Assembly (NCBI GenBank): GCA_016937715.1
Contig: JAFGWA010000005.1
Span: 5,040 to 69,039, forward strand
Direction of reading: 5' to 3'
Source: Candidatus Goldiibacteriota bacterium
GTDB taxonomy: Bacteria > Oederibacteriota > PGYV01
DNA: 64,000 nucleotides
Below the pieces are notes generated by a model. It searched no databases. It saw nothing but the letters and a program-made list of their open reading frames with translations, and had not been told where the DNA came from. Below, in pieces: positions 12,819 to 58,111 of this stretch. The position numbers and the translations under genes were made by a program. Numbering within the stretch: position 1 is the first letter of the stretch; every line of letters starts with the position of its first letter.

Positions 12819-12826
12819 TCCCGGTA

Positions 12827-22452: not shown

Positions 22453-22498
22453 ATCACCTTCTTAGTGATAATTATACTGATAAAATCAAAAAAGTCAA
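22453..22498 (-). promoter_or_regulatory. sigma70-type promoter (TTGACT-16-TATAAT) immediately followed by operator TATCAC-N7-GTGATA, upstream of ldhA
   Basis: On the minus strand the -35 is 22493-22498 and the -10 is 22471-22476; the operator at 22453-22469 abuts the -10, the same layout as at 36177-36225. Confidence 0.55.
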
Positions 22499-23190: not shown

Positions 23191-23397
23191 GTTGATTAGC
23201 AACAGTTTTAGGATTTTGATAACCATACCCCTTTTTCCGGATCACTCATAGTTAAAGTTCAAAAATCAAACAAAACACTAAAAAATTTAGATTATATTTA
23301 CTTAATTAGCACGTCCCCTGCGAGAAAAGAAAATCTATGGAACAAAGTACCTCGACTAAAACCTGCGACTACAATAACTTATTTGCAAAAGAATACC

Positions 23398-33596: not shown

Positions 33597-34505
33597 TTAC
33601 AGTTCCACCATTTTTTCTATGGGGCGTATCGCGTTTTTTATTGTATCTTCATCAAGAATAACTTCTGTCTTTTCCTCTTCCAGGCACGCAAGCAGGTCGG
33701 ACAATCTGGTTTTTTTCATATTCACGCATACTTTCGCGGAGCCCAGCGAGAAAAATTCCGCGTCAGGCCTTTCTTTTTTCAGCCTGTGTATATGCCCTTC
33801 TTCCGTACCTATTATAAACTGCTTGTCCGGGCTTTCCCTTACATACTTAATCATGCCGGATGTTGACCCCACCACATCAGCCGCATCCACCACTTCGGGT
33901 TCGCATTCGGGATGCACCAGTATTTTGGCGCCGGGATGCGCTTCGCGCGACTTTATTACATCTTCTTTTGTGAACTGATGGTGCACAATGCATCCGCCCT
34001 GATGGATAATAAGCTCTTTTTCGGGAGTATGTTTTTTCACCCAGTATCCAAGATTTTTATCAGGAAGAAATACAACCTGTTTTTGGGGAAGTTTTTTAAC
34101 CACATCTATAGCGTTTGCCGATGTTACGCACACGTCAAGAAGCACTTTTACTTCGGCGTTTGTGTTAACATACCCGGCAAGAGCGGCATCGGGATATTTC
34201 TTTCTGTACTCTTTTACCTCTTCAACCGTAATCGTATCAGCCAGCGGGCATCCCGCGTCCATTCTGGGGATTAATACTTTCTTCTTGGGAGAAAGAATTT
34301 TTGCGGTTTCCGCCATGAACTTTACGCCGCAGAATACAATTAACTGTTCCGGCGCAGCCGCTGTCTTGCGCGCCAGTTCCAGTGAATCACCGGTAAAATC
34401 AGCAATATCCTGAATATCCGGTATCTGGTAGTTATGCGCGACGATAAGCCCGCCTTTTTTTGCTTTAAGTTCCTTAATTTTTGCAATCATTTCATTTTTT
34501 TCCAT
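33597..34505 (-). CDS. nadA: quinolinate synthase
   Basis: NadA family (IVAHNYQ..., three conserved Cys, about 300 aa). Confidence 0.9.
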   Translation of the reverse strand: MEKNEMIAKIKELKAKKGGLIVAHNYQIPDIQDIADFTGDSLELARKTAAAPEQLIVFCGVKFMAETAKILSPKKKVLIPRMDAGCPLADTITVEEVKEYRKKYPDAALAGYVNTNAEVKVLLDVCVTSANAIDVVKKLPQKQVVFLPDKNLGYWVKKHTPEKELIIHQGGCIVHHQFTKEDVIKSREAHPGAKILVHPECEPEVVDAADVVGSTSGMIKYVRESPDKQFIIGTEEGHIHRLKKERPDAEFFSLGSAKVCVNMKKTRLSDLLACLEEEKTEVILDEDTIKNAIRPIEKMVEL

Positions 34506-34536
34506 TTTTAATTCTCCCTTTCCATATTTATATTTT

Positions 34537-35718
34537 TTATGCTTTATCCCTGTTTTTCCAGAATGGCGACATATTTCTTAACTTTTCAACCGCCGGCGGA
34601 AGCACTGAAAGCACCTCGTCTATATCTTCCTGCGTGGTATATTTGCTTAAGCTGAAACGTATGCTTCCGTGCGCGGTGCCGTGGTCAAGCCCCATTGCCA
34701 AAAGCACGTGCGAAGGGTCAAGGGAACCTGACGTACAGGCGGAACCCGATGACGCGCATATGCCTTCAAAGTCCATCTGTATAAGCATTCCTTCGCCTTC
34801 TATAAATTCTACGCTGACATTAAGCGTGTTTTCCGCCCTGTGTTCAGGATGTCCGTTTAATATAACTTCGGGAATTTCTTCAAATATACCCGCCTGCAGT
34901 TTATCGCGCAGCTGTTTTATTTTTTCATGCGCTTCAGGATTTTTAAAACTCTCCATGGCCAGCTCGCACGCTTTGGCAAGGCCCACAATTCCCGGAACAT
35001 TTTCAGTGCCCGGCCTTTTTCTGTTTTCGTGGTGTCCTCCCTGCATTATAGGGGAAACCTTTACTCCTTTTCTTATGTACAGCGCGCCGATACCTTTTGG
35101 GCCATGAAATTTATGGGCTGATATAGAAACCAGATCAGCGTTCATTGCTTTTACATCCAACGGGTATTTGCCCGCAGCCTGAACCGCGTCGGTGTGAAAT
35201 ATAATATTATGCTCCCTTGCAATTGCGCCTATTTCCGATATGGGTTCAATTGTACCGGTTTCATTATTTACCGCCATTATGGAGATAAGAATTGTATCCG
35301 GCCTTATGGCTTTTTTTACATCATCCGGATTTATAACACCGTATTTGTCCACGGGAAGGTAAGTGACTTCATAACCCTCTTTTTCAAGCGCCTTGCAGAC
35401 ATTTAATACGGCATGATGTTCAATGGCGCTTGTGATTATATGTTTTCCCTTGGATGAATTAGCCAAAGCGGCGCCGCGCACGGCTATGTTATCAGATTCC
35501 GTACCGCCGGAGGTGAATATTATTTCCCTGCTGTCAGCGGCGTTAAAAAACCGCGCTACAACCGCGCGTGATTCTTCCACGGCTTTTCTTGCGTCCTGCC
35601 CAAAGGAATAAACACCTGAAGCATTGGCGTAATTTTCAGTCATATAAGGCATCATTGCCTTTAAAACTTCATCGTCCATTCTTGTTGTCGCGTTATTGTC
35701 CAGATAATGAATTTTCAT
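34537..35718 (-). CDS. iscS: cysteine desulfurase (NifS/IscS class V aminotransferase)
   Basis: PLP-lysine block SAHKFHGPKG and the active-site SSGSACTS. Confidence 0.9.
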   Translation of the reverse strand: MKIHYLDNNATTRMDDEVLKAMMPYMTENYANASGVYSFGQDARKAVEESRAVVARFFNAADSREIIFTSGGTESDNIAVRGAALANSSKGKHIITSAIEHHAVLNVCKALEKEGYEVTYLPVDKYGVINPDDVKKAIRPDTILISIMAVNNETGTIEPISEIGAIAREHNIIFHTDAVQAAGKYPLDVKAMNADLVSISAHKFHGPKGIGALYIRKGVKVSPIMQGGHHENRKRPGTENVPGIVGLAKACELAMESFKNPEAHEKIKQLRDKLQAGIFEEIPEVILNGHPEHRAENTLNVSVEFIEGEGMLIQMDFEGICASSGSACTSGSLDPSHVLLAMGLDHGTAHGSIRFSLSKYTTQEDIDEVLSVLPPAVEKLRNMSPFWKNRDKA

Positions 35719-35733
35719 GTTATATCTCCTTTA

Positions 35734-36159
35734 TTATTTCTGCGGAGTGTGGTTTTCCGCCACTTCAGACAATTTAGTCTGTTTTAAATAAGTGCTTATT
35801 ACTTTATCCAGCCCCACCCATACTTTTCTTATGCCGCACTTTGGCGCGTTGTTACAGGCTTTTATATTAATTACGCATTTGGAAGGCGACACGCCTTTTT
35901 CAACCGCTTCCAGCACATCATAAACCGAAATATCTTTGGGCGCCCTTGCAAGCATAAACCCGCCTTTTTCTCCCTTTACACTTGTAATAATGGAAGCTTT
36001 GCGAAGTGTGACAAATATGTTTTCAAGGTACCTGTTGGATATATCTTCCCTTTCTGATATGTGTTTTATGGAGACAGGCTTGTTGCCATTCTTTAAGTAG
36101 GACTCCGCAAGATGGGTCAAAGCCCTTAAAGCGTACCTGCCTTTTGTTGATACATTCAT
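35734..36159 (-). CDS. Rrf2-family transcriptional regulator (IscR-like, three Cys)
   Basis: MNVSTKGRYALRAL... HTH; Cys cluster CVINIKACNNAPKC; first gene of the isc-like operon. Confidence 0.8.
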   Translation of the reverse strand: MNVSTKGRYALRALTHLAESYLKNGNKPVSIKHISEREDISNRYLENIFVTLRKASIITSVKGEKGGFMLARAPKDISVYDVLEAVEKGVSPSKCVINIKACNNAPKCGIRKVWVGLDKVISTYLKQTKLSEVAENHTPQK

Positions 36160-36176
36160 TCCTGCCTCCTGCTAGT

Positions 36177-36225
36177 TTATCACCATTCTTGTGATAATTA
36201 TATATTTCTTTAACGATAATGTCAA
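36177..36225 (-). promoter_or_regulatory. sigma70-type promoter (TTGACA-17-TATAAT) immediately followed by palindromic operator TTATCAC-N7-GTGATAA, upstream of the rrf2-iscS-nadA-iscU-mnmA operon
   Basis: On the minus strand the -35 is 36220-36225 and the -10 is 36197-36202; the operator at 36177-36197 has the same TATAAT-TATCAC-N7-GTGATA layout as 22453-22476. Confidence 0.6.
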
Positions 36226-36333
36226 GATTAATTTAATCCCGGTATGAATTTTATATTATCACCGAAATGGTGTGGAATCAAGGGGAAAGAGCGGAAGAAA
36301 CGAGGGACGGAAGAAAAGCAAACATCAAATCAA

Positions 36334-36762
36334 CTATTTTTTATAAACAAAATAACCGACTATCAAACTAAAAATAAATATTTCTGCAACCATAATCAAT
36401 CCATGAACAAAGTTGCCAAAACCAAAATTAACTTTATCAAAAACCACCAGAAATAAGTAAACAGCTAAAATCAAACCATTAATTGAAACAAATAAATTAA
36501 GAAAAATATTTTTTATATTTTTCGAATAATAATCTTTTACCGAATAATAACTGTAATATGTAAAAATACTTCCGCCAAGTATAACCGCAACGTAATTAAA
36601 CCAAGGTAAATTTGTTGCAAGTTGAAGAAAAATTGAAGATATCAAAAACAATGATATTAATAATGCCGTTAATATAAGCAGCAATCTGTCTTTTATCAAA
36701 TTATTAGTGGATTCAATCTTGGAGTTTTTATTATGCACGTCTTTTTTTATCGTCGGCTTCAA
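36334..36762 (-). CDS. hypothetical polytopic membrane protein (AT-rich)
   Basis: Four predicted TM helices; Asn/Lys/Ile-rich composition unlike the flanking genes. Confidence 0.4.
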   Translation of the reverse strand: MKPTIKKDVHNKNSKIESTNNLIKDRLLLILTALLISLFLISSIFLQLATNLPWFNYVAVILGGSIFTYYSYYSVKDYYSKNIKNIFLNLFVSINGLILAVYLFLVVFDKVNFGFGNFVHGLIMVAEIFIFSLIVGYFVYKK

Positions 36763-36931
36763 CTTGTTAACCCTCCTCTAAATGCCACATAATTAACTTG
36801 CCTCCCAATACAACACATCATATAAAACTACTCGAAAAGCGTGAATGTTATGGAAATACCCACTTTCATACGACTTCCTTAATATTATAAATCAATAACA
36901 TTCCGGATACAACAAAACAAGTAACACCACA

Positions 36932-36958
36932 CGGACAGCGCGGGAGCGCCGTCCCTAC
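36932..36958. repeat. hairpin repeat H1 copy (GGACAGCGCGGGAGCGCCGTCCCTAC)
   Basis: Same palindrome as at 14421 and 27229, with one stem mismatch. Confidence 0.6.
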
Positions 36959-37029
36959 AAAACCTTAAAATATCTGTTTACATTTCACCCGCGCGCCTAT
37001 AGAATCATAAAAAAACAGGAGGTAATACT

Positions 37030-37317
37030 ATGAAAAAAATAATGGTTTTATTGATACTTTGCGGAAGTTTAATGGCTGGATGCGCTTCAGGCGGCGCTGT
37101 AAAAAAAGATGACGCGCCTGCGGGAAAACAAGCTGTAATAATTTCCGACAAAACAGTTGACGTATGGCTGTCCCCGGCTTTGACAGGCGCCGCGCCATTC
37201 AGGACTTTAAACCCCGGCGATGAAGTAAAGGTATTAAGCACATCAAACGTTTCCGCGCTTATTGAAATGAAAGACGGCTCACGGGGATTTGTGGATGTGA
37301 TGAAGATATCGAAGTAA
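37030..37317 (+). CDS. small secreted lipoprotein (SH3-like fold suspected)
   Basis: Strong RBS AGGAGGtaatactATG; lipobox LMAGC; one of the few plus-strand genes; flanked by repeat elements. Confidence 0.55.
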   Translation: MKKIMVLLILCGSLMAGCASGGAVKKDDAPAGKQAVIISDKTVDVWLSPALTGAAPFRTLNPGDEVKVLSTSNVSALIEMKDGSRGFVDVMKISK

Positions 37318-37470
37318 TCAGATGCTTGGATGCTCGGAAAAGCATGACGCTTGGATGCTTAGATGCTTGGTCAAAACCGGATACAAGCGAAAACAGCAAC
37401 TGCCGCGGGCTAAAGACCCGCGTCTACCAATGTTTCCAAGCATCTAAGCATCCAAGCCTCTAAGCATCTA
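37318..37470. repeat. octamer (ATGCTTGG-like) runs flanking an H2 hairpin (CAACTGCCGCGGGCTAAAGACCCGCGTCTACC)
   Basis: Same modular repeat family as 27228-27421 and 48107-48200. Confidence 0.7.
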
Positions 37471-37477
37471 CTTCCGT

Positions 37478-40400
37478 TTACCTAACCACCGCTACTTTTT
37501 CAGTTGCTTTGTAATGTGAGGTTTCTACGGTTATTAAATATGTGCCGCTGTTTATTATGTTGCCGTTGTCATTTTTGCCTTCCCAATAAAGTTCTTTTGT
37601 TCCAACCTGTGTTATGACCCCGTCAAAAAGTGTTGCTACAAGCACGCCGGTTCTTGTGTAAACTTTAACTTTCACATTATCACCGGAATACACATTAAAC
37701 ATTATTGTCACCCGTTCGCCTTTATCCGGTTCTATCACGTTGTTGAATATCTTAATATCTTTTTCAGATATAACTTCCTTGTCAAATTTTCCGCTGCTTG
37801 TACCCCATACGCCGCAGATATCCTGCCCTTTTACCACAATCCTGTCTATGTCGCCAAATCCGGTCTGCTTTGGATAAAGCACACGGTAGACCCTGTCCTG
37901 TCCCGGCACAAGTGTACTTACAAAAGAAAGCACATCTTTATTTTCCGTGCCGCCGTGCGGGTAGACATCAATTGACGGCGGATTTACAAGAAGCACATTT
38001 GAAGTAATTTCAAAATATATATTGTCAGTATGCTCGGGGTTGAAAATCATTTTTACCGTAAACGACGGCGGTGTCACCCCGTCGCACGGAAGCGGCGTTG
38101 ATGTTAACGTTGGCTGTGCGGTAATAGTCATTGTGGGGGTAAATGTCGGGGTTATTGTTAAAGTAACAGTAGAAGTCTGTGTAGCGGTGCAAGTAACAGT
38201 GCGCGTTGAAGAAGCGGTTGCAGTTATGGTTGTAGTTGCGGTCTTTGTTATAGTAGAAGTGGGAGAAACTGTTATAGTGGGCGTCATTGTCAGTGTTGGC
38301 GACAATACAGCCGTAAGTGTAATAGTAGACGTGGGCGTGTGCGGCGGACACATGTCTTCTATGTTCCAGATAACCTGGTCATAACCTGTAGTAAGTGATG
38401 CTGTATGACCCGTAACCAGTAACCTGCAGATAGTCAGGCGTAATATAGAGTAACATTCATCATCATAGCCGGAGTCATAAACCCATTCCCCTGCTGTGCC
38501 GAATGTAGTGTCAATTGTGCCGTACATATCATAACGCCTTACAACGCAGTCTGTATCGCTGCCATTATGCCTTACATAAAGTATCACAAGTTTGCCGTCT
38601 ACTTCTATTATGCTTCTTATTTCTTCTCCCGGACCGGCTGTTAATATGCCGTCCGAATCAAAACCGGTGTCAAAAGTACCGTCTGCATTTAATACTATTG
38701 TGATTGAAGAACGGCACGTTAAAGTACAGCCGCTACCGTCATCCACATAGCCGCTTATAACTATTTTACCGCCAACGGTAATTATCATGGATTTTGGCAC
38801 GCAGTTTTTATGATTTAAAGCCGTGTTGATATATGAAGTACAGCCGCCTGTGCCGAAAGTGGAATCCAAACTTCCGTCATTTAAAAACTTCCACATACAC
38901 ATCGCCCTGCAGGTGCCTGTGCAGCCCGGGTCATTGGAATCGCTCCACCCTGATACAAGTATTTCTGTGCCAATGCACTTTATTGTAAGCGCGCAGTCAT
39001 TGCCGTTGCCGCCCGCCTGATTATGAATTTTTCTGCATCCTAATGGGCCGAATGTGGTATCAGGATTGGAGTCGGGATTTATCCTTGTTACGCACGCGTC
39101 ATAGTCGGTGCCGTTCCAGGACTTGCCCACGCATACGTATCTTCCGTTTGAATCTATATCAAAATCATAGAAATAATCATTGCCGCTTCCGTACGTCCTG
39201 AAACACTGGCCCGCGTTAAAACTTGTATCCGGCGTGCCGTCAGGCAGGAACCTGTAAATTATTCCATACGAACATGTTCCGCCGCATGGGTCAACAGTAC
39301 CTGCCACAATTATATTCCCGCTGCTGTCGCATTTGACCGTTATGGAATCACCCCATACATATTTCGTTGAAGGGCCGGGGCATACCATCCTGCCATTATT
39401 GCCAAACGACGTGTCTATTGACCCATCGGGTAAATACCTGTAAAGAACCGTAACATAACAGGTGCAGTTATCGTCCCATTCCAACGCGATAACAATTAAA
39501 TTGCCGTTATTGTCAACACACGAACCTTTTCCACCATTATCCCCCGGAAGCGGATTAATTATAATATCATCACCGGGAAAACTGTCAGCAGGCACAGTTG
39601 ATACAGGGGTAAGCGTTGATGTAGCGCTAAGGTCTACCGATGCTGTTATTGTCACCGTGGGTGACGGAGTTTTTGTGGCTGTATATGAAGCTGACAGGTT
39701 ATGCGTAACCGTAGAAGTGGCAGTTTGTGTTGAAGTTTTTGTCGGAGTCATTGTCAGCACAGCAGAAGGATTAATTGTTATCGTACGGGTTGCCGTCATT
39801 GTGGATGTTTGTGTCAGCACAACAGACGGTGTGATAGTTATTGTGGATGTTGCGGAAGGTTCTTTGGTTGTGCAATAAAAATACGTGTCATTTATTGTAA
39901 ACGCTCCGCCGGTTACACCGGTATATGTATAGTTTACAGTATTAGAAACCATCATTTCACATGGCGTAGAAATTGCCCTTACAACAATTTCTTTATTTCC
40001 TGCCGAATCAGCGCCTGTCATATCCCACGATATTACAACCGGGCCTGTTACATCAACACTATATCCGGCTGATGCTGATACCAGGTCAAACTGAGAAGGC
40101 AGCGTGTCCCATATAGCCCCGCTTGTCATAGCTGTTTTTCCATAAGCTACAAAATTATCATACGAATCCTGCGTATCTCCGCTGTCGCCGCTTTGTTCCC
40201 CAATACCGGGTTTCCATAAACTATCGCATTCCATCGGCGACGGGTCTGTCCATGTAAGCGACCATCCAACCGGTTCGGGTTCGCCTTTTGGCCAGACCTT
40301 TGCGCTTAATGAACCGTCTTTCGCGGCTGATATTTTGGCGGTATACCATTTATTGATTGTTATATCCACGGCATTTGTATAAGCAGGCCACGAGCAGGAT

Positions 40401-41839
40401 TCTTCGCATCTTTGAAATTGCAGCATACCCGCAGGCGCGGTATCAACAGACACCAGCAAAGCATATGACTTTGACCCTATGCCGTTTATTCCGTTATGCC
40501 TTATCATTATCATCGCATCCGAACCCATATATTCGGCTGTACCAAAGCCAATTTTAAAATCAGAATATATAATGGAGTCACAGTAATTATTATTGTCATC
40601 TATAAGCAGCATGGGATATTGTGTATTCAGCGCGTCACCCCTTATCACCCTGTTGCCTGTATTACATGCATCTTCCACATACCATGTTCCATTTGTGCCA
40701 TTATATGGCATAAAAGACCACCCTGTAGGGGGTGTTGCTGTATAAGTTCCCAAAGGGGTATCTTCAAAAGTCCTTATCGCTCCAAGTTCAATACCTCCGC
40801 TTAGGTCATAATTAATAGTATACGTCAGCATCTCCCCGTTGTAGACATTTGCAGGATTTGTCGAAACCGTTAAAGTTCTCTCTTCTATTGGATTAACCAT
40901 TACTGATGTTGATGACATTTCATCCGAAATTCCTGCCATTGAACCGGTTACAGCACACGAATAGTTAATGCCCACAGGAGCATCAGCTGTCATTTTCATC
41001 ACAACCCAGACTTTACCTTCTTTTTTGTCGATTGTCCCCGTAATATCAGAAAACTGCCATGTGATTGTCCCTGATGTTACCCCTATTGCCGGCGCGTTTA
41101 CGCTGCCGCCGGTTATTGAAACAGGGCCGTAACTTACAAGTTCTAAATTTCCGACGCCCGGAAGCGGTATCGCAGCACTTAATGCTCCGTTTGTATATGA
41201 ATAATCCGCGTTGAACATCACCAAATCCCCGGCTTTACGAAGTATCCCTTCGCTTTTCATCGTTATATTCATATCAGGAGGAGGCACAGCCGGCGTCCAG
41301 GTAAGGGATTCTGACGAACAATCAGCCGCAATATCCCAGTCAGATTCTCTTAAAGCAAAATTTTTCATCACCAGATGAAGATACATCTCTGAAACATTAC
41401 ATTCCGGATACATGCCTTTATCGGGAATATGTATTACAAATTCTTTTACGTAACTCTGCCCTCCTTCATTCATGCAATCCATACAGGGCGTCGACGCCAT
41501 CCATCCGTTTGGCGTGTTTGCAAGGTAATCTATATCTCCGCCCGGCGCGGCAGCCGGCCTTGCGGTTGCGACATCAACTCCCTTTTCACTTATCACAAAT
41601 ATCTGCCCTTGCCCGGACAACGAAGCATTAACTTTTTCCGGCTTACTGCTTATTGCAAGCGCCATCTGGCAGTCATCATAAAGTTCCGAACAGTAATCTA
41701 TTGTGACTGTTACTGTATCACCAAAAAAAGGATTTGCAGGGTTCATGGTCACAGAATTTATTTTTGGTTCCGCGAAAATATTTGCGGCCAGCATTATGAA
41801 CGCCGCAAGAATTAATATCAGTGCTTTTTTTATCTTCAT
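37478..41839 (-). CDS. giant secreted surface protein (1453 aa): N-terminal lectin/Ig-like regions, Thr-rich mucin-like linkers, delta-60-type beta-propeller repeats (...DGSIDTSFG...), C-terminal Ig-like sorting-type domain
   Basis: Signal peptide; repeated xxDGSxDTSFGxxG blocks; two poly-Thr/Ser linkers; the last 75 aa resemble the C-terminal domain of the neighbouring anti-sigma factor and end in ...KVAVVR. Confidence 0.8.
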   Translation of the reverse strand: MKIKKALILILAAFIMLAANIFAEPKINSVTMNPANPFFGDTVTVTIDYCSELYDDCQMALAISSKPEKVNASLSGQGQIFVISEKGVDVATARPAAAPGGDIDYLANTPNGWMASTPCMDCMNEGGQSYVKEFVIHIPDKGMYPECNVSEMYLHLVMKNFALRESDWDIAADCSSESLTWTPAVPPPDMNITMKSEGILRKAGDLVMFNADYSYTNGALSAAIPLPGVGNLELVSYGPVSITGGSVNAPAIGVTSGTITWQFSDITGTIDKKEGKVWVVMKMTADAPVGINYSCAVTGSMAGISDEMSSTSVMVNPIEERTLTVSTNPANVYNGEMLTYTINYDLSGGIELGAIRTFEDTPLGTYTATPPTGWSFMPYNGTNGTWYVEDACNTGNRVIRGDALNTQYPMLLIDDNNNYCDSIIYSDFKIGFGTAEYMGSDAMIMIRHNGINGIGSKSYALLVSVDTAPAGMLQFQRCEESCSWPAYTNAVDITINKWYTAKISAAKDGSLSAKVWPKGEPEPVGWSLTWTDPSPMECDSLWKPGIGEQSGDSGDTQDSYDNFVAYGKTAMTSGAIWDTLPSQFDLVSASAGYSVDVTGPVVISWDMTGADSAGNKEIVVRAISTPCEMMVSNTVNYTYTGVTGGAFTINDTYFYCTTKEPSATSTITITPSVVLTQTSTMTATRTITINPSAVLTMTPTKTSTQTATSTVTHNLSASYTATKTPSPTVTITASVDLSATSTLTPVSTVPADSFPGDDIIINPLPGDNGGKGSCVDNNGNLIVIALEWDDNCTCYVTVLYRYLPDGSIDTSFGNNGRMVCPGPSTKYVWGDSITVKCDSSGNIIVAGTVDPCGGTCSYGIIYRFLPDGTPDTSFNAGQCFRTYGSGNDYFYDFDIDSNGRYVCVGKSWNGTDYDACVTRINPDSNPDTTFGPLGCRKIHNQAGGNGNDCALTIKCIGTEILVSGWSDSNDPGCTGTCRAMCMWKFLNDGSLDSTFGTGGCTSYINTALNHKNCVPKSMIITVGGKIVISGYVDDGSGCTLTCRSSITIVLNADGTFDTGFDSDGILTAGPGEEIRSIIEVDGKLVILYVRHNGSDTDCVVRRYDMYGTIDTTFGTAGEWVYDSGYDDECYSILRLTICRLLVTGHTASLTTGYDQVIWNIEDMCPPHTPTSTITLTAVLSPTLTMTPTITVSPTSTITKTATTTITATASSTRTVTCTATQTSTVTLTITPTFTPTMTITAQPTLTSTPLPCDGVTPPSFTVKMIFNPEHTDNIYFEITSNVLLVNPPSIDVYPHGGTENKDVLSFVSTLVPGQDRVYRVLYPKQTGFGDIDRIVVKGQDICGVWGTSSGKFDKEVISEKDIKIFNNVIEPDKGERVTIMFNVYSGDNVKVKVYTRTGVLVATLFDGVITQVGTKELYWEGKNDNGNIINSGTYLITVETSHYKATEKVAVVR

Positions 41840-41910
41840 TTTATTTCCTCCGTTATTGCTTTATTATTACCCTTGCCTATATGACAGAATACAGCTTAAA
41901 TTAGTTCCAA

Positions 41911-42822
41911 TTATTCCAGCAGCATATCCAGGCTTATCCTGTGGGTGGCGCCAAGCGTATCAAAGGGCTGATACGCGTAGGCAAATTTTACTTTTTCTAA
42001 AAGCACCCCTATTCCTATACTTAAATTAGCGGAATCATGCCTGAAGCCGTACCCTGCCCTGGCACACAGTATCTTAAACATTGTGCATTCCGCACCCAAA
42101 TCAAGCGTGGGAAGTTCATCTTTTATCCACAGCCGGTTCACGTCAACCGAAGCCCTTATGTTTAATTCCTGCGATATATCATATGAAGTGCTGACACCGG
42201 CTTTTATGTTTATCGGCATTGTATCCGCTATTTTAATATACGCCTGCTGCCAGCCGATGTTCTGCACGGCTATCCCGCCGTAAGTGTCCGGGTTGGACCC
42301 TATTTTTACCATTGCCCCCGCGTCCACCGCAAACCCTATCTTGTCGTAAATGTACAGTTTGCTGTAAAAGAATTTAAAGGTTGCGCCCGCGTATATGCCC
42401 GCAAAAACGGGCTGAGCGTATGAAATTAAACCCATCACGTCATAATTTTCCACATTGCCGCATTCATCCCCAAATTCATCTATTTCAACAAAATCAAAGG
42501 TATAATCAAGAAAAACCCCTACTGAAGTAACCGCACCGTTTTGAAGCGGGATTACAAGCGCGCCGTATTCATAATTGGTATCGGCAAACGAGGCAAAGTG
42601 AGAAAGCGTGATTTCCATAAGTTTTAAATCCGCGATGCCCGCGGGATTAAACAGAAGCGAATTGATGTCATGCGGTACGGCGCAGTAAGCGCCGCTGAAA
42701 GAAGCGGCTTTGGCAGGAGGCGATATCCTTAAAAAATCCGGACCCACGCCGCCGGCGGCAAATAACGACACGCTTAAAAACAAACACAAAAAAACGCATG
42801 ATAAGCGCCTTATCCCCGCCAT
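41911..42822 (-). CDS. outer-membrane beta-barrel protein, PorV/FadL-like
   Basis: Signal peptide and an N-terminal ...LRISPPAKAASFSGAYCAV...LLFNPAGIA block like the PorV/LptO N-terminus; alternating amphipathic beta-strands; terminal aromatic-rich strand. Confidence 0.5.
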   Translation of the reverse strand: MAGIRRLSCVFLCLFLSVSLFAAGGVGPDFLRISPPAKAASFSGAYCAVPHDINSLLFNPAGIADLKLMEITLSHFASFADTNYEYGALVIPLQNGAVTSVGVFLDYTFDFVEIDEFGDECGNVENYDVMGLISYAQPVFAGIYAGATFKFFYSKLYIYDKIGFAVDAGAMVKIGSNPDTYGGIAVQNIGWQQAYIKIADTMPINIKAGVSTSYDISQELNIRASVDVNRLWIKDELPTLDLGAECTMFKILCARAGYGFRHDSANLSIGIGVLLEKVKFAYAYQPFDTLGATHRISLDMLLE

Positions 42823-42854
42823 TTATCCCTCTTTGTTTTTAATTGAATACTTTA

Positions 42855-43790
42855 TTATCTTATGACAGCCGCTTTTATCTTTTTTTCCGCCAGCGGCGTC
42901 TTTATGTAAACTGTGTAAATCCCCGAAGCTGCCGCGCGCCCGCCATCATCTTTTCCGTCCCATGTAAATTCATAAGCGCCCGCGGGTTTTTTTTCGTAAA
43001 AATGCACCACCGGCTGCCCTGTCCTGTCGTATATCCTTATTTCCACCTGCCCCAAATCATCCAGCCTGTATTTTATAACAAACTTCTCTCCCTTGACAGC
43101 GTTAATTACATTATTCCTGACTTCTATTTCAGCAGGCGTGGGGGTTACAACTATTTTTTTATCAGAAGCGGCGGCAACAACCGGCGCGTCAGATATTTCA
43201 TTACTGCCTTTTAATGCGATTGGGAGTTTTTCATCCACAAACTGATTTACCTGCGGAATGTCTTTTGGCTCTTCCTTTTTTATATCTTCCTTAACCGGCT
43301 CTGCCGACACAATACGCGTTTCGCCTTCAGATTTTTTCTGTGTGACATATGTAACGGCTTTTTTTGTCTTTTTAGTCTGCTGTTTTTCCGTGATTTTAAC
43401 CGCAGGTTCTCCCGATGCGAATTCAACTTTTTTATCCTCAACAATACCCGGATTCATTACAAATAACCCGAATATCACAGCAGCCGCAAATGCCGCTGCC
43501 GGCACGGCAAAAACAGGCCGTTTTATATACTTTATAACCCTGTCAATTACAGACGGAGACTGCTCCCCGATTTTATCCCAAACCTTTAAATTAAAATCAG
43601 CGGGCAGTTTTGGCTCTTCTTTCATATCAGAAAACACGCTTTTAAGCGCAAGCACCGCTTTATATTCCAAAGCACATTTTTTACATGTTTTGACGTGCGT
43701 TTTTACTTCACCCTCTTCAGCAGCGCTTATATTGCCTTCTATTAAGCTGTTAATCAATCCGTTTACCTTTTTACAGCTCATTTCGTTCAC
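42855..43790 (-). CDS. zinc-finger anti-sigma factor: cytoplasmic HxxxCxxC domain, one TM helix, periplasmic linker, and a C-terminal Ig-like domain homologous to the C-terminus of the giant protein
   Basis: N-terminal ...KTHVKTCKKCALEY (putative zinc-binding anti-sigma motif); TM helix AVPAAAFAAAVIFGLFV; 20-nt overlap with the ECF sigma gene; C-terminal ...VEIRIYDRTGQPV...WDGKDDGG...SGIYTVYIKT...KAAVIR. Confidence 0.65.
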   Translation of the reverse strand: MNEMSCKKVNGLINSLIEGNISAAEEGEVKTHVKTCKKCALEYKAVLALKSVFSDMKEEPKLPADFNLKVWDKIGEQSPSVIDRVIKYIKRPVFAVPAAAFAAAVIFGLFVMNPGIVEDKKVEFASGEPAVKITEKQQTKKTKKAVTYVTQKKSEGETRIVSAEPVKEDIKKEEPKDIPQVNQFVDEKLPIALKGSNEISDAPVVAAASDKKIVVTPTPAEIEVRNNVINAVKGEKFVIKYRLDDLGQVEIRIYDRTGQPVVHFYEKKPAGAYEFTWDGKDDGGRAAASGIYTVYIKTPLAEKKIKAAVIR

Positions 43791-44361
43791 CTAACTTTCT
43801 TGCCAGTTTTTGTTTCAGTTTTTCCCTTGCCCTTGAAAGCTTTGACTTTACGCTTCCCAGCGGAATTTTAAGAACTTTACTTATTTCATCATATTCCATT
43901 CCTTCTAAGTCCCTAAGTATAACCACGCTTCTTTCCGCGGGTTCAAAACCTTCCATGGCTTCCATCACGCATTCGCGCAGCTGCTTCTTTTCTGCCAGTA
44001 CATCCTGCCCTTCGCGGACATCCGCCACATCCACCGGGTCTTTATCGCGGCTTTCGTCCCCGCTTATGGAGTCGGTTTCATAATATTTTCTGCGTTTTAA
44101 CGTATCCAGCCGGTTTATGCACATGTTCACCGCCACCCTGTAAAGCCAGGTGGACAGTTTGGAGTCAAATTTAAAAGAGCCAATTTTCTCATACGCTTTG
44201 CAGAAGACTTCCTGCGCCATGTCGCACGCTTCTTCATTGTTTCTCATATACTTCAGGCAGACAGACGCAACCGTCCTTTTATACGCTGTAATTACCCTGT
44301 CAAAAGCCTGCCTGTCTCCGCGAACCGCCTTTTTTATTTCCTGTTCGTTCAGTTCTTCCAT
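43771..44361 (-). CDS. ECF RNA polymerase sigma factor
   Basis: Region 2 (AQEVFCKAYE, TWLYRVAVN) and region 4 (EGMEYDEISKVLKIPLGSVKSKL). Confidence 0.8.
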   Translation of the reverse strand: MEELNEQEIKKAVRGDRQAFDRVITAYKRTVASVCLKYMRNNEEACDMAQEVFCKAYEKIGSFKFDSKLSTWLYRVAVNMCINRLDTLKRRKYYETDSISGDESRDKDPVDVADVREGQDVLAEKKQLRECVMEAMEGFEPAERSVVILRDLEGMEYDEISKVLKIPLGSVKSKLSRAREKLKQKLARKLGERNEL

Positions 44362-44603
44362 TTATCCCTCATTTAATCGGACAGAATCCGCCCAAAATAA
44401 GTTCCGGTTATTTTTAGCCCCGCCAATTACCATAAAATGCTTTCCTATTATATAACAATACACTGTTAAATTAACAGATGAAAAGAACACCTTTTTCCCC
44501 GTGCGGCAGAATATAACAAAATATCTCAATATTTGGCTTTATGCAGGTTAGTTTTTATGCTAAAATAACTTAAATTTTTTACAACTTACAGGAGGAAATA
44601 TAG

Positions 44604-47162
44604 ATGAAACTTATGGATTTTAATGTGTTACCAAATCTGCCGGAGAAGCTTAAACCGCTTCTGGACCTTGCTTACAACGTATGGTGGGCGTGGGATTCAG
44701 AAGCGTTTGCCCTTTTCAGGGACATTGACCCGGACTTATGGTCACAGACATCACACAACCCGGTTAAGCTGCTTTACAGGGTGCAGCAGGAAAAACTTGA
44801 GACAATTGCAAATGATGAAGGTTTTATCTTCCGCATCGAAAACGTCCTTAAAAAACGCAATCAGTACATGTCCAGGCCCTGCTGGTACGACAAAATAAAG
44901 AACAATCTGCCAAAAGATTATCAGATAGCGTATTTCAGCGCTGAATTCGGGCTTGCGGAATGCCTGCCTATTTATTCCGGCGGCCTTGGCGTCCTTGCGG
45001 GCGACCATTTAAAATCCGCTTCTGACCTTGGACTTCCTTTTATTGCGGTTGGCCTTCTGTATTCACAGGGCTATTTTCACCAGTACCTGACAACCGACGG
45101 CTGGCAGCATGAAAAATACGTAACGCACGATTACAATACGGCTCCCGTGAAACAGCTTAACAAAGCAGACGGCAGCAGCATTATAATTGAACTGAAGATG
45201 CCCCACGGCATTGTAAAGTTCGCGCTGTGGAAGGTTCAGGTGGGACGCATAAGCCTTTACCTTTTAGACACAAATATTCCGGAGAACAGCCACGCTGACC
45301 GTGATATCACTTCCAAACTTTACGGCGGCGACCTTGAAATGAGAATAAAACAGGAATACCTGCTTGGCATCGGCGGTATGATTGCGCTGGACGCCCTTGG
45401 AATTAAGCCCACTGTAACGCACATGAACGAAGGCCATTCTTCATTTTTAGCGCTGGAGCGCATAAAGATGCTAATGGAAAAAGAAAAACTTTCATTCAAC
45501 GAAGCAAAAGAAATTGTCGCGGCCAGCAGCGTGTTTACCACACATACCCCTGTCCCCGCCGGAAACGACAGATTTCCGCAGGAAATGATGGAAAGATATT
45601 TAAAAACCTATGTGGAACACTCCCTTAAAATATCATTTGAAGAGTTTATGAAACTGGGGCGCGTGTATCCGGAAGACAAAAGCGAATGGTTCTGCATGAC
45701 CGTGCTTGCCCTTAAGCTTTCGCACTTTAATAACGGCGTGTCAAAACTGCACGGCCGCGTATCGCGCGATATGTGGAAAGACATCTGGACAGGAGTGCCT
45801 GTGGAGGAAGTCCCCATAGGATACATCACCAACGGTATTCACATGAACAGCTGGATATCAAAAGAAATGTCAGACCTTTTCTTCCGTTATCTTGGCACAC
45901 GCTGGGTGGACGCGCCTGACGAACACGAAATATGGAAAAAAGTGGACGAGATTCCGGACACGGAACTGTGGAGCACGCATGAACGCAGAAAAGAAAGGCT
46001 TGTGGAATTTGTCCGCAGAAAACTTAAATCACAGTTAAAAGCGCGCGGCTCTTCAAAAGAAGAAATAGACGGCGCCGGCGAAGTGCTTTCTTCAGACGTT
46101 TTAACGATAGGATTCGCCAGAAGGTTTGCCACTTACAAAAGGGCTACCTTAATGATGCGCGACATTGAAAGGCTTAAAGCTATACTTACCAACAAACACA
46201 TGCCTGTACAGATAATATTTGCAGGCAAAGCTCATCCCAAAGACGATGCCGGCAAAGAGTTCATAAAACAGATAATTCACATTACCGAAAAAGAAGGGTT
46301 AAGAAACCACATAGTCTTTGTTGAAGACTATGACCTTAACACCGCCCATTATCTTGTTCAGGGAGTGGACGTGTGGATGAACAACCCCAGAAGGCCGCTG
46401 GAAGCAAGCGGTACATCGGGCATGAAGGTTATTTTCAACGGCGGATTAAACTTTTCAGTGCTTGACGGCTGGTGGGACGAGAAAGCGGATGCGGACAACG
46501 GCTGGTGCATAGGCCGCGGCGAAGAATATGAAGATATAGCTTATCAGGACGCTGTGGAAGCTAATTCCATTTATGACACGCTTGAAAACGACCTTGTCCC
46601 TCTTTATTACAAACACGGTAAAGACGGATTGCCGCATGACTGGATAAAAAAGATGAAAACATCCATTGCCACCCTTGGCCCCGTATTTAACACAAACAGG
46701 CAGGTAATGGAATATACTGAGATGTTCTATAAACCCGCCGGGCTTAACTACGCCAAACTTGCCGGCAGCGGGCTTGACAAACCAAAGAACATAAGCAAGT
46801 GGAAAGAAAAAATAGCTTCTAAATGGGACGCGGTAAAAATAACTTCCGTAAGTTCCGGTGATTCTTCCGCGATTAAAGTAGGCGGTTCGCTTAAAATAAA
46901 CGCGGAACTTGAAAGCGGCGGATTAAACGCGGAAGACCTGCTGGTGGAAATTTATGCCGGCTATGACAGAGGCGGAGAAATACTGGAAGAAATAAAAACA
47001 TTTGAAATGAAAGCCGTTTCAAATGAACACGGAAAAATAAAATACGAAAGCACCGTTACACCTTCCACTTCCGGTGCTGTAAATTATTCCGTAAGGGTAA
47101 TGCCGGCGCATCCGGATGTAGCTTTTAAATTCCTTCCCGGTTACATTAAGTGGTACGAATAA
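44604..47162 (+). CDS. glgP: alpha-glucan (glycogen/maltodextrin) phosphorylase, GT35
   Basis: PLP-lysine block EASGTSGMK; about 850 aa, the GT35 alpha-glucan phosphorylase type; RBS AGGAGG. Confidence 0.9.
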   Translation: MKLMDFNVLPNLPEKLKPLLDLAYNVWWAWDSEAFALFRDIDPDLWSQTSHNPVKLLYRVQQEKLETIANDEGFIFRIENVLKKRNQYMSRPCWYDKIKNNLPKDYQIAYFSAEFGLAECLPIYSGGLGVLAGDHLKSASDLGLPFIAVGLLYSQGYFHQYLTTDGWQHEKYVTHDYNTAPVKQLNKADGSSIIIELKMPHGIVKFALWKVQVGRISLYLLDTNIPENSHADRDITSKLYGGDLEMRIKQEYLLGIGGMIALDALGIKPTVTHMNEGHSSFLALERIKMLMEKEKLSFNEAKEIVAASSVFTTHTPVPAGNDRFPQEMMERYLKTYVEHSLKISFEEFMKLGRVYPEDKSEWFCMTVLALKLSHFNNGVSKLHGRVSRDMWKDIWTGVPVEEVPIGYITNGIHMNSWISKEMSDLFFRYLGTRWVDAPDEHEIWKKVDEIPDTELWSTHERRKERLVEFVRRKLKSQLKARGSSKEEIDGAGEVLSSDVLTIGFARRFATYKRATLMMRDIERLKAILTNKHMPVQIIFAGKAHPKDDAGKEFIKQIIHITEKEGLRNHIVFVEDYDLNTAHYLVQGVDVWMNNPRRPLEASGTSGMKVIFNGGLNFSVLDGWWDEKADADNGWCIGRGEEYEDIAYQDAVEANSIYDTLENDLVPLYYKHGKDGLPHDWIKKMKTSIATLGPVFNTNRQVMEYTEMFYKPAGLNYAKLAGSGLDKPKNISKWKEKIASKWDAVKITSVSSGDSSAIKVGGSLKINAELESGGLNAEDLLVEIYAGYDRGGEILEEIKTFEMKAVSNEHGKIKYESTVTPSTSGAVNYSVRVMPAHPDVAFKFLPGYIKWYE

Positions 47163-47225
47163 AATAACATCTTACGGCAGGCGCCGTGCTTTTGCACGGC
47201 GCCTGTATATTAAGGAGGGTTTATA

Positions 47226-47612
47226 ATGTCAATGAGATCCCCTAAAGAAATGAAAATGCAGGAAACAATTATTAAAACTTTAAAAACTATATATTTAAAC
47301 CAGAAAGGCGCCGACGCCGTACTTACCAACATTGACAAAGCAGAAGCGGTGGTACAGGGATTATATCCGGACCTTATCGCTAAGGGAAACCAGACTTACA
47401 CTTTTAAAGTGGAAACCGAAAGCACTGTTACAGACGGGTCCGCGATAGAGTGGAAAAGTTTTTCGGAGAAAATCGGCACATTTTACCTGCTTGTTCCCGA
47501 GCCGTTAAAACCCGAAGCACTTTCAATTATAAAAAAGCTTGCCATACCGCATATTGTGATTGCCACATATAAAATCGCGGATAACAAACTTAAATTTAAC
47601 AACCTGCCATAG
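47226..47612 (+). CDS. hypothetical protein
   Basis: Good RBS AAGGAGGgtttataATG; 128 aa; no recognised motif. Confidence 0.5.
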   Translation: MSMRSPKEMKMQETIIKTLKTIYLNQKGADAVLTNIDKAEAVVQGLYPDLIAKGNQTYTFKVETESTVTDGSAIEWKSFSEKIGTFYLLVPEPLKPEALSIIKKLAIPHIVIATYKIADNKLKFNNLP

Positions 47613-47899
47613 TAAAAAACTATCAAGTCACTTTTGTGCTGATTATTTGTTCTGACCGCATTTTTTAAAGCAGGCGTTATAAAGATGGAGTGACGGATGC
47701 ACAGAGGGACAGATGGACGGAAGTAAAGCAAAGCAGATGCTTGGACGCTTGGATGGTTAGAGGGTTGGCATACAAAGCCGGGGGACAAAAGTAAATACAA
47801 ATAACAATTCAACTGCCGCGCCCTAAAGGGACGCGCCTACCAAGGCATAAAAACAAAACATCAAAACAAAACCCGTATGTGTTGTTGCGGGTTTCAAAA

Positions 47900-48102
47900 C
47901 AGGGGTTGGGTGTGTTTTTTCAGTGCGTGCCGCGTAAGTATACTGTATATGCAGCAGGGACGGTTTAATGCCGCGCCGGCAAATCCGGATGTACCGCAAG
48001 GCCACGGTTGCCAATGACGTTAACACACCGGCGGATTCAGATTTATTTGAATACAAGAACACCAATTTGCGGCGCGTGCTGAAAAAATATACCCAATCCC
48101 TG
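47900..48102. repeat. 203-bp element with 33-bp terminal inverted repeats (copy A); MITE-like or structured RNA
   Basis: 5' CAGGGGTTGGGTGTGTTTTTTCAGTGCGTGCCGC ... GCGGCGCGTGCTGAAAAAATATACCCAATCCCTG 3'. Conserved internal block TTGCCAATGACGTTAACA. Two further copies at 59313 and 59619. Confidence 0.75.
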
Positions 48103-48106
48103 TAAA

Positions 48107-48200
48107 ACCGGATGCTTGGATGCTTAGAGGCTTGGACGTTTGGTAAAAGCAATTATAAAAGGCAAATACAACTGCCGCGGGCTGAAGACCCGCGTCTACC
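48107..48200. repeat. tail module: ATGCTTGG octamer x4 plus H2 hairpin; near-identical to 59827-59935
   Basis: GGATGCTTGGATGCTTAGAGGCTTGGACGTTTGGTAAAAGCAATTATAAAAGGCAAATACAACTGCCGCGGGCTGAAGACCCGCGTCTACC. Confidence 0.75.
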
Positions 48201-48232
48201 AAATCTAAACCAAGCCGCTGAACTGCTTCTTT

Positions 48233-56287: not shown

Positions 56288-56471
56288 ATTAAGGTCCTCC
56301 TGTACGGCAACTTACCGCCTAACCATTGTAATGATAAAATCCTTTAAAATCAAGAAAAAAGATAAGTAATTGATGGTTAGATGCTTAGAAGCTTAGATGT
56401 TTGATTGAATCTAATGCGCTAAGATAAATTGCACACCAATAAAAATCCATCAAGGGAAACAGCTATACAAC

Positions 56472-57740: not shown

Positions 57741-58111
57741 CAGTTTTCCTTTATTTTTAGCATCAATTGTATAGCTTTAATAAACTCGTCAGGATTATCA
57801 GGTGTAATAGCCCACTCATAAAAAATCATTCCATCTTTTCTTTCAATTATTGTTGTTTCACCCCAGATATTATTTCTAATGTTTAATCTACTTGCAAAGG
57901 GATCAACCATACCTTCCAGAGATGAACCCTTTCTAATACTTTTTATATTATTAATAGATATAAAAAAAACAGGAATTATCCCAAAAAGACAAATTACAAT
58001 CTTTTCTTGCTTTACTTTATATTGTAAGATGAATCTAAATAACCATTGAAAAAACGCTATAAAAACAATAACAAATCCAATAAATTTCAAAAACTCAACA
58101 CCAACACTCAT
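57740..58111 (-). CDS. hypothetical membrane-anchored protein (AT-rich)
   Basis: Two N-terminal TM helices; its stop overlaps the start of 56472-57740. Confidence 0.4.
   Translation of the reverse strand: MSVGVEFLKFIGFVIVFIAFFQWLFRFILQYKVKQEKIVICLFGIIPVFFISINNIKSIRKGSSLEGMVDPFASRLNIRNNIWGETTIIERKDGMIFYEWAITPDNPDEFIKAIQLMLKIKEN

Follow-up and report, generated by a model that had tools for sequence, protein, structure and literature searches.

We analysed a window of 64,000 nucleotides from the Candidatus Goldiibacteriota contig JAFGWA010000005.1, which carries a cassette of four co-directional minus-strand open reading frames (ORFs; 37478–44361). They encode an extracytoplasmic function (ECF) sigma factor, an anti-sigma factor, a PorV-like outer-membrane barrel and a giant secreted protein, called the cargo below. 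The anti-sigma factor and the cargo end in related immunoglobulin (Ig)-like C-terminal domains (CTDs). An initial annotation, made from the letters alone, had named an ECF sigma factor, a zinc-finger anti-sigma factor with one transmembrane (TM) helix, a PorV-like barrel and a delta-60 giant protein. Hidden Markov model (HMM) scores bore out all four identities, ORF calling and translation returned the same gene coordinates, and all particulars of that observation that could be checked were correct. The features of the cassette are listed in Table 1. For comparison, we used 17 non-redundant loci (numbers preceded by L) from Goldiibacteriota, candidate division FCPU426 and unclassified metagenome-assembled genomes (MAGs).

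Table 1. Genes, domains and promoter elements of the cassette, in window coordinates.
Feature	Position	Strand	Basis or remark
ECF (group 4) sigma factor, 196 aa, sigmaE/sigmaW/AlgU-like type	43771..44361	(-)	Sigma70_r2, r4_2, TIGR02937
Single-pass anti-sigma factor of the zinc-associated anti-sigma (ZAS) type, 311 aa from GTG	42855..43790	(-)	zf-HC2 + TM + FlgD_ig
Anti-sigma TM segment, ~residues 92–113	43452..43517	(-)	Hydropathy maximum
Anti-sigma C-terminal Ig-like domain, residues 222–311, FlgD_ig / type IX CTD-like, ending ...KIKAAVIR	42858..43127	(-)	HMM, AlphaFold2
PorV/PorQ-family 14-stranded outer-membrane barrel, 303 aa with signal peptide	41911..42822	(-)	NF033709
Cargo, 1453-aa secreted or surface protein with signal peptide	37478..41839	(-)	Translation, TIGR02608, DUF5122
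Cargo C-terminal Ig-like CTD, ~residues 1360–1453, ending ...EKVAVVR	37481..37762	(-)	FlgD_ig, BLASTP
P_sigma, putative autoregulatory ECF-type promoter, GGAACTT-N16-GTC (GGAACTTATTTTGGGCGGATTCTGTC)	44380..44405	(-)	Ends 18 nt upstream of the sigma ATG
P_cargo, second putative ECF-type promoter (GGAACTAATTTAAGCTGTATTCTGTC)	41883..41908	(-)	In the 71-bp barrel–cargo gap, ends 43 nt before the cargo ATG
Candidate housekeeping sigma-70-type promoter, TGTTAA-N18-TATAAT (low confidence)	44447..44476	(-)	Upstream of P_sigma

The sigma factor carries only regions 2 and 4 (Sigma70_r2, 55.5 bits; r4_2, 57.3 bits) and scored 112.3 bits on TIGR02937 against a cutoff of 42.9, which places it in ECF group 4. 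The cutoff of no equivalog (SigW, RpoE and others) was reached. Its nearest solved relatives in a PDB sequence search were AlgU-like, SigH, SigW and RpoE proteins (E ~1e-28). The 3' end of the sigma gene is overlapped by the start of the anti-sigma gene. For the latter, the ATG at 43781 (MSCKK..., 308 aa) is more likely than the GTG at 43790, because the 308-aa product is identical to a database protein from a Candidatus Goldbacteria MAG (P0001). The cargo consists of an unassigned N-terminal region, Thr/Ser/Pro-rich linkers visible in the translation, delta-60 (DUF5122) propeller repeats and the CTD. The repeats scored 136.5 bits on TIGR02608 (cutoff 76.5), in 6 stretches, and 66.7 bits on DUF5122. 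Convergent with the end of the cargo gene lies a 95-aa predicted lipoprotein ORF (37030–37317 (+), MKKIMVLLILCGSLMAGC...), which has a counterpart of the same size and position in the Goldbacteria loci L001, L006 and L019 and is absent from the distant cassettes. A second 196-aa ECF sigma gene of the window (17307–17897 (-)) has no adjoining anti-sigma gene and is flanked by an 819-aa fusion protein (Pyr_redox/rhodanese/TusA/DrsE) and an Rrf2 regulator.

The N-terminus of the anti-sigma factor, taken as a single sequence, scored 20.5 bits on Pfam zf-HC2, just below the gathering score of 22.2. Among 33 anti-sigma relatives, H32, C36 and C39 were invariant and C6 nearly so, which corresponds to the ZAS signature (H-x3-C-x2-C). 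A PDB sequence search with the family profile matched the N-terminus to RsiW (5wuq_C, E=2.9e-8) and the C-terminus to FlgD (E=8e-9). The protein is accordingly assigned to the ZAS type from its sequence, with zinc binding and sigma binding predicted. Every family member has a single hydrophobic segment with its maximum at about residue 90; N-terminal of this TM segment lies a family-specific motif, P-x-DFN-x-KVW-x-KIG-x-P-x-PS. The AlphaFold2 (AF2) model showed N-terminal helices with predicted local distance difference test (pLDDT) values of 67–80 up to about residue 50 and a beta-sandwich at residues 222–310 with values of 70–84. Residues 53–219, with the TM segment among them, were modelled at low confidence. 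The disordered periplasmic tether comprises about 110 aa in the window protein and 85–148 aa (median 115) across the family, and it is rich in Ala, Lys, Val, Pro and Glu. In an extended state it would be long enough to span the periplasm, and it may do so. By analogy with known ZAS anti-sigma factors, the zinc-finger domain is expected in the cytoplasm and the Ig domain in the periplasm, since the former must be cytoplasmic for holding the sigma factor.

A subset of the family (~280–308 aa) begins without the first ~45 residues, including H-x3-C-x2-C, and keeps the pre-TM motif, the TM segment, the tether and the CTD. It comprises about nine family clusters (P0036, P0064, P0069, P0072, P0073, P0076, P0087, P0097 and P0108) and the anti-sigma gene of L019 (7109–7966). 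The latter is not a mis-called start, because the gene begins right after a sigma gene of normal length.

The C-terminal domains of the anti-sigma factor and the cargo both belong to the Pfam family FlgD_ig (PF13860). The anti-sigma domain scored 44.1 bits (residues 229–297, E=2e-11) and the cargo domain 28.1 bits (residues 1372–1441), against a gathering score of 27. The two C-termini are 31% identical over 104 aa (BLASTP, E=4e-13), so the alignment between them described in the initial annotation stood. An HMM built from both domains found no third copy in the window. The E value, the common Pfam family and the presence of just two copies rule out a chance or compositional match. The fold had been described as FlgD-Ig or as similar to type IX secretion system (T9SS) CTDs. 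This description held in part: the FlgD_ig threshold was reached and PorZ was the best fold match, and the thresholds of the T9SS type A models were missed (scores are given below). In the PDB, the anti-sigma CTD matched PorZ first (5m11, E=7e-6) and FlgD next, with PorU also listed; PorZ is a T9SS component that keeps its own CTD. The anti-sigma CTD scored 17.9 bits on the PorZ model. On CHU_C it reached 25.5 bits and the cargo CTD 14.4 bits, below the threshold of 27, and the cargo of L004 gave 21.2 bits on PF18962 (threshold 27).

The extreme C-terminus is strictly conserved in both classes. A Lys stands at position -6 from the C-terminus in 28 of 28 CTDs, and the 14 anti-sigma and 14 cargo CTDs all end in K-x4-[KR]-COOH. 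The domains thus combine the two features of a T9SS CTD, a compact Ig-like beta-sandwich and a Lys near the C-terminus. In type A T9SS CTDs, a nearly invariant Lys near the C-terminus, important for function, contacts PorV in all structures with bound substrate (PMC10994853). Passages of PMC11285876 also describe the CTD as an Ig-like sandwich with a conserved C-terminal Lys.

Mean CTD identity was 41% within the anti-sigma class, 39% within the cargo class and 31% between the classes, and nearest neighbours almost always belonged to the same class. Among Goldbacteria orthologues, the cargo CTD is 90–93% identical. The anti-sigma CTD is as similar to the cargo CTD of its own locus (31.0%) as to those of other loci (30.7%), and its nearest neighbours are other anti-sigma CTDs. 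A recent copy of the own cargo CTD, or co-evolution with it, was ruled out on these grounds. The anti-sigma CTD is therefore an old dedicated paralogue, without locus-specific matching. This would be compatible with a conserved partner shared by both domains, for example the highly conserved barrel, and does not prove one.

The barrel scored 130.7 bits on NF033709 (PorV/PorQ family; cutoff 90), and NCBI names its orthologues 'PorV/PorQ family protein'. It is not an orthologue of PorV or PorQ proper by score, with 83.2 bits on T9SS_PorQ (cutoff 220) and 31.6 bits on T9SS_OM_PorV (cutoff 250). The AF2 model, built from a 33-sequence alignment (pLDDT 85.5, predicted TM-score 0.80), showed 14 long strands behind short N-terminal helices. 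The top two PDB matches in Foldseek were both Flavobacterium johnsoniae PorV: 8gl6_F (TM-score 0.82, E=6e-15), chain F of the translocon bound to the RemA CTD substrate, and 6h3i_F (TM-score 0.79), chain F of the SprA–PorV complex. FadL and TodX channels ranked behind PorV, with TM-scores of ~0.55–0.6. The modelled structure is accordingly described as a FadL-type 14-stranded barrel with an N-terminal plug, nearest to PorV. In a sequence search with the family profile, PorV was the only PDB match (E=4e-12). The PorV-like assignment of the initial annotation was upheld by these three lines of evidence, and a generic FadL channel or porin was rejected on the same evidence.

Within the cassette, conservation is highest in the barrel, which has 46–62% identity where the anti-sigma factor retains about 30% and which invariably adjoins genes of CTD proteins. 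Among its invariant residues are F111, G118, G122, A194 and P203, which strand counting on the model would place in extracellular loops 2 and 4. Barrel–CTD anchoring pairs have been described, namely PorQ–PorZ, PorV–PorU, PorP–PG1035 and SprF–SprB (PMC10947112, PMC9143113, PMC12618676). The initial annotation had held that PorV-like shuttles bind CTDs of just this kind; by analogy, the cassette barrel may bind the cargo CTD. A distant PorV-like/UPF0164 barrel from an ENA metagenome (P0207, 445 aa) carries a FlgD_ig domain fused at its C-terminus; this fusion hints that PorV-like barrels and FlgD_ig domains work together.

The arrangement recurred as a conserved module. An exhaustive HMMER scan of 1.84 billion cluster representatives with the anti-sigma profile yielded about 45 proteins (50% identity clusters) of 280–350 aa that matched from end to end, and tens of thousands of proteins with only the Ig domain in common, often as internal repeats. 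A scan of one genome per GTDB species with a 12-sequence anti-sigma alignment gave ten loci, from Goldiibacteriota, candidate division FCPU426, MAGs labelled uncultured Spirochaetia and unclassified bacteria. By these two scans, the cassette family is rare and taxonomically narrow. All four genes are kept in the orthologous Goldbacteria loci. Wherever the contig was long enough, the locus had the order sigma factor, anti-sigma factor with zinc finger and CTD, barrel, and one or two proteins ending in a CTD. Three further loci picked from the barrel side showed the same cassette, so the module was recovered from the anti-sigma and the barrel side alike and is not a one-off. One anti-sigma factor of 30% identity lies in an unrelated neighbourhood beside rpsL, rpsG and fusA. 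There, a sigma gene precedes the anti-sigma gene, and downstream come a UPF0164/PorV-like barrel and a CARDB protein of 464 aa with a C-terminal FlgD_ig domain.

The passengers of the cargo proteins are mutually unrelated: delta-60 repeats with CIA30/CBM11, DUF11, CARDB, GH8 with CIA30, and NHL/Kelch propellers. The CTD is retained throughout. It is therefore the CTD, and not the passenger, to which the other three genes are matched. Most loci (L011–L015 and L017–L020, compared with 33597–51472 of the window) share the neighbourhood of the window at 54–80% identity, with Mfd, a 128-aa ORF and GlgP on one side and Rrf2, IscS and NadA on the other. L004, L010, L016 and L021 are located elsewhere. 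Because the neighbourhood stays constant while the passengers differ, the module appears to be an old chromosomal fixture of the lineage, in which cargo was exchanged in place behind a constant CTD and promoter.

Some loci deviate in detail. L012 has a second PorV-like barrel (12246–13148) after its cargo. A second CTD cargo, preceded by an ECF-type promoter of its own, is present in L013 (13378–16428) and in L018 (13827–16883); in L013 it is a GH8 glycoside hydrolase. L002 and L007, both in GCA_029554705.1, are two diverged versions of one locus, with anti-sigma factors 74% and 63% identical to that of the window. Strains or species are probably mixed in this MAG, as opposed to one genome with paralogous cassettes. 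L006, with the gene content of L007, is the one locus reaching past its cargo, and its downstream genes are the same as in L001.

P_sigma was the sole GGAACTT-N15-17-GTC match in the window, with 0.11 expected, and it is conserved in the orthologous loci. The ECF-type promoter that the initial annotation had proposed upstream of the sigma gene was thereby confirmed as a motif. A GGAAC/GAAAC-N15-19-GTC/GAC motif ends 13–39 nt before the HMM-supported sigma start in 16 of the 17 loci. Together with the overlapping genes, this motif gives the sequence pattern of a co-transcribed anti-sigma factor behind an autoregulatory promoter with an AAC -35 and a GTC-type -10 element. P_cargo was absent from the initial annotation and was found in the follow-up. 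Almost all cargo genes, the second cargos of L013 and L018 among them, have a site of its type 15–50 nt upstream. The barrel genes of the 17 loci all lack a preceding GGAAC...GTC motif. The background of the motif in the same sequences was about 0.02 per 60 nt.

The two promoters co-vary by lineage in the -35 extension and the -10 element. Goldbacteria-type loci have AACT/TTT...TCTGTC at the sigma and cargo promoters alike, and in L004 and L021 both promoters read AACCGG...TGTCTAA. AAATTGTC occurs at three promoter positions of L013, and L010 has CTGTCACATA at the sigma and cargo positions. Because the promoters are paired and co-vary in this way, there is strong comparative evidence that the sigma factor would transcribe the operon it belongs to, the barrel being part of that transcript, and directly the cargo gene. 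The barrel is probably co-transcribed with the sigma and anti-sigma genes, since it has no promoter motif of its own. ECF-dependent transcription of the giant gene, as proposed initially, is thus better supported than could be known at that stage, through a co-varying ECF-type promoter of its own.

Upstream of the ECF motif, a TA[TA]AAT element, often with TTGAAA 17 nt before it, lies 24–89 nt away at the sigma gene in 11 of 15 loci. Equivalents of the sigma-70-like element in Table 1 were seen in L001, L006, L011, L013–L015, L017, L018 and L021, and the block is conserved among the Goldbacteria loci. This suggests, with low confidence, tandem basal and autoregulated promoters, in which the sigma-70-type element would give the sigma/anti-sigma/barrel operon its basal expression. 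A generic scan of the region for sigma-70 promoters and terminators gave no enrichment over shuffled sequences and no operon boundaries.

Elsewhere in the window, an NHL-repeat protein (9366–10430 (-)), ScyF-like with a score below the cutoff, and an acetylxylan-esterase-like protein (4875–5954 (-)) are both without a CTD. Two patches of low GC content, 22001–24000 (0.347) and 56001–58000 (0.322), stand out from about 0.43 elsewhere. The second one contains a 422-aa ORF (56472–57740) with no NCBIfam match and no record in the assembly collection.

With the above results in hand, we propose that the cassette is a self-contained envelope signalling and surface-display module, in which the anti-sigma CTD engages the barrel or pathway of the cargo CTD; we give this explanation about an even chance. 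An anti-sigma factor that ends in a cargo-like tag domain suggests that a duplicate of the cargo's tag lets the cell monitor whether cargo is delivered. The sigmaE/sigmaW-type ECF sigma factor would transcribe the sigma/anti-sigma/barrel operon from one promoter and the cargo gene from a second, matching promoter. Sec would export the cargo, and the dedicated PorV/PorQ-like barrel would recognise its CTD and carry or anchor it at the outer membrane. The zinc-finger domain of the anti-sigma factor would keep the sigma factor at the inner membrane, while the tether of ~85–148 residues presents the paralogous CTD in the periplasm. This CTD would interact with the barrel or pathway that the cargo CTD uses. 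Whether the anti-sigma factor is stable or is removed would then depend on barrel occupancy, be it cargo or the anti-sigma factor that occupies it, the removal probably proceeding by regulated intramembrane proteolysis, as for RsiW. Cargo synthesis would thereby be tied to free carrier or anchor capacity.

The steps of this scheme differ in strength. The autoregulated pair of the sigmaW–RsiW/sigmaE type, the direct control of the cargo gene by the sigma factor, the cassette-dedicated PorV-family barrel and the CTD on both proteins are well supported. That barrel and CTDs bind, that the two CTDs compete and that proteolysis releases the sigma factor are plausible consequences of this layout. 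From the architecture, we infer that barrel occupancy may control anti-sigma stability and sigma release. The feedback sensing of cargo export or CTD processing that the initial annotation had in mind would follow from the same architecture. The polarity of the feedback is not decidable from sequence: an empty barrel may activate the system (homeostatic refilling), or arriving cargo may do so (a commitment switch).

Several findings weigh against the proposed module. The anti-sigma factors of about nine family clusters and of L019, which have no zinc-finger N-terminus, are unexplained by it. The T9SS type A model TIGR04183 gave 16.1 bits for the anti-sigma CTD and 11.4 bits for the cargo CTD, below the threshold of 23. 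With 47,598 representatives at E<1e-3, the FlgD_ig family is very large, and its domain is often an internal repeat instead of a terminal signal. The two CTDs of a locus show no locus-specific co-evolution. Canonical PorV binds the CTD by extracellular loops inside the SprA pore (PMC10994853); a periplasmic CTD tethered to the inner membrane would therefore need a translocon for access. No T9SS core gene (SprA/Sov, PorK/L/M/N, PorU) was found in the window, and neither the cassette nor the window contains a site-1 protease candidate. In the passages of the T9SS literature drawn on here, the system is described only in Bacteroidota or the Fibrobacteres–Chlorobi–Bacteroidetes (FCB) superphylum.

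A more specific version of the proposal is tentative, and we consider it possible rather than probable. Goldbacteria and FCPU426-like bacteria, which stand outside the FCB superphylum, may use a minimal type IX-like surface display with the anti-sigma factor as a membrane-tethered decoy substrate. A cargo-free PorV-like carrier, with or without a translocon, would capture the anti-sigma CTD and so cause release of the ECF sigma factor. If true, transcription would here be coupled to secretion by a FlgM-like logic that uses T9SS parts, and a secretion-signal domain would for the first time serve as an anti-sigma sensor.

Among the alternatives, an independent ligand sensor of the RsgI kind fares best, and we regard it as unlikely. 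Here the Ig domain would be a sensor for some ligand from the envelope or the environment (a glycan, for example), the sigma factor would switch on a surface protein with a related Ig module, and the barrel would serve the cargo only. The carbohydrate-related modules on several cargos (CBM11/CIA30, GH8) are in keeping with this, as are the missing co-evolution of the two CTDs and the general-purpose character of the FlgD_ig fold, which has many uses. Passages on clostridial RsgI likewise describe C-terminal sensor modules of the kinds found on the regulated cellulosomal proteins. However, the hosts of the cassette are diderm, so a periplasmic anti-sigma domain cannot reach external polymers. 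The domain conserves the CTD fold and the cargo-type terminal K-x4-[KR], not a distinct binding site. Moreover, a barrel co-transcribed with the sigma and anti-sigma genes, beside a cargo with its own promoter, is the arrangement expected if the barrel is a signalling partner.

The anti-sigma CTD could also be a tethered pseudo-substrate. When the pathway is idle, a T9SS-like translocon with the PorV-like carrier would pull or clip it, and this site-1 event would release the sigma factor. Such a mechanism is a stronger form of the explanation we prefer and requires the presence of core T9SS genes. We hold it to be rather improbable, because a 303-aa barrel is unable to translocate a folded domain by itself, both CTDs lie below the T9SS HMM thresholds, and no translocon, motor or sortase gene was found within the 64-kb window. 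It would nevertheless account for a CTD fold and terminal Lys as in type A signals and for the long, disordered tether, and CTDs are known to be clipped by PorU-type sortases. Export of FlgM by the flagellar system provides a precedent for an anti-sigma factor as a secretion substrate.

A mere protective cap, by which the Ig domain shields the anti-sigma factor from a periplasmic site-1 protease, the CTD likeness reflects common descent of a locally abundant domain and the signal is general envelope stress, is slightly less probable still: it suits the sigmaE/sigmaW–RsiW type of the pair, systems of which answer envelope stress via regulated proteolysis, and the long separation of the two CTD lineages, but leaves unexplained why every locus has a barrel and a CTD cargo with matching promoter despite passenger exchange, and why the anti-sigma copy keeps the terminal Lys motif. 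The ligand sensor and the cap are both disfavoured because the barrel travels with the sensor genes, the cargo promoter matches and the anti-sigma factor retains the Lys motif.

The signalling and display module that we prefer bears on the poorly understood question of how bacteria match the synthesis of large surface proteins to their export or anchoring capacity. In type IX-like systems, synthesis and capacity are known to be linked only by the indirect PorA–PorXY–SigP route. The cassette would be a compact, genetically self-contained case of four genes, whose sensing element is a copy of the sorting or anchoring domain of the cargo, and the idea is directly testable with four proteins and two promoters. 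A PorV-family barrel with CTD cargo in candidate phyla without described type IX secretion also bears on the origin and the minimal requirements of that pathway. Its cargo is freely exchangeable while the CTD and the promoter stay constant, so that the module resembles a natural plug-in platform for regulated surface display.

Full-text literature searches on anti-sigma factors with T9SS, PorV, CTD or FlgD returned only a paper on PorA and unrelated work, and the arrangement is undescribed there. The main text of the ECF reclassification paper contains no mention of FlgD or PorV, and the Goldbacteria genome paper does not treat secretion. Each part of the cassette is of a known kind (ECF/ZAS pair, PorV-family barrel, CTD cargo), and it is the combination that is new. 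Within the literature searched, a CTD as the extracytoplasmic domain of an anti-sigma factor is new as well.

Comparison with known systems places the regulatory half of the cassette next to sigmaW–RsiW and sigmaE–RseA. The sigma factor is nearest to SigW, RpoE and AlgU in sequence, the anti-sigma N-terminus is RsiW-like with H-x3-C-x2-C, and the single-pass topology, the autoregulated operon and the GGAAC-type -35 element are also shared. Unlike these systems, the cassette has a long disordered tether with a CTD-type Ig domain and a barrel gene in the operon; proteolysis is known there and would be expected here. FecA–FecR–FecI resembles the cassette in combining an outer-membrane barrel, an inner-membrane anti-sigma factor that crosses the periplasm, an ECF sigma factor and an adjoining target gene. 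However, the cassette barrel is PorV-like and not a 22-stranded TonB-dependent transducer with a signalling domain, and no link to TonB was evident. None of the four cassette proteins matched FecR or a TonB-dependent receptor, which argues against signalling of the FecR/TonB type. In the FlgM/sigma28 system, the anti-sigma factor bears the recognition feature of the export pathway, the sigma factor controls late substrates and the export status sets transcription. FlgM is a soluble protein that is exported intact through the flagellar type III apparatus, whereas the cassette anti-sigma factor is membrane-anchored and its export or engagement is hypothesised.

In RsgI/sigmaI of cellulolytic clostridia, according to passages in PMC10328401 and PMC6582324, the external domain of the anti-sigma factor also comes from a module family that occurs on the sigma-controlled proteins. 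In those passages, the sigma and anti-sigma families differ from those of the cassette, the hosts are monoderm and the modules bind polysaccharide, whereas the cassette module is a C-terminal domain of the sorting or anchoring type in a diderm. The display half of the cassette resembles the T9SS carrier barrels, as a PorV/PorQ-family 14-stranded barrel is encoded beside a protein with a CTD-fold Ig domain and a C-terminal Lys. The PorP/SprF-type B pairs likewise have a dedicated barrel genetically linked to its cargo (PMC9143113, PMC12618676, PMC10947112, PMC10994853). The cassette barrel differs in its length (303 aa, against 345–402 for PorV chains) and in failing the PorV and PorQ equivalog cutoffs. 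The cassette CTDs lie below the type A thresholds and score best on FlgD_ig. The hosts are Goldbacteria and FCPU426-like bacteria, beyond the described range of the T9SS, with no translocon or motor within the window, and the barrel gene shares an operon with a sigma/anti-sigma pair. PorA of Porphyromonas gingivalis offers a helpful precedent: this CTD protein binds PorV, gets to the surface without the translocon and feeds PorXY–SigP (PMC7712824). There too, a PorV-binding CTD protein acts in a pathway that ends at an ECF sigma factor for secretion-related genes. PorA, however, is a small secreted surface protein rather than an anti-sigma factor, and its signal is relayed by a two-component system. 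For SigP, no anti-sigma factor with a CTD has been described, whereas the cassette has the CTD fused directly to its anti-sigma factor.

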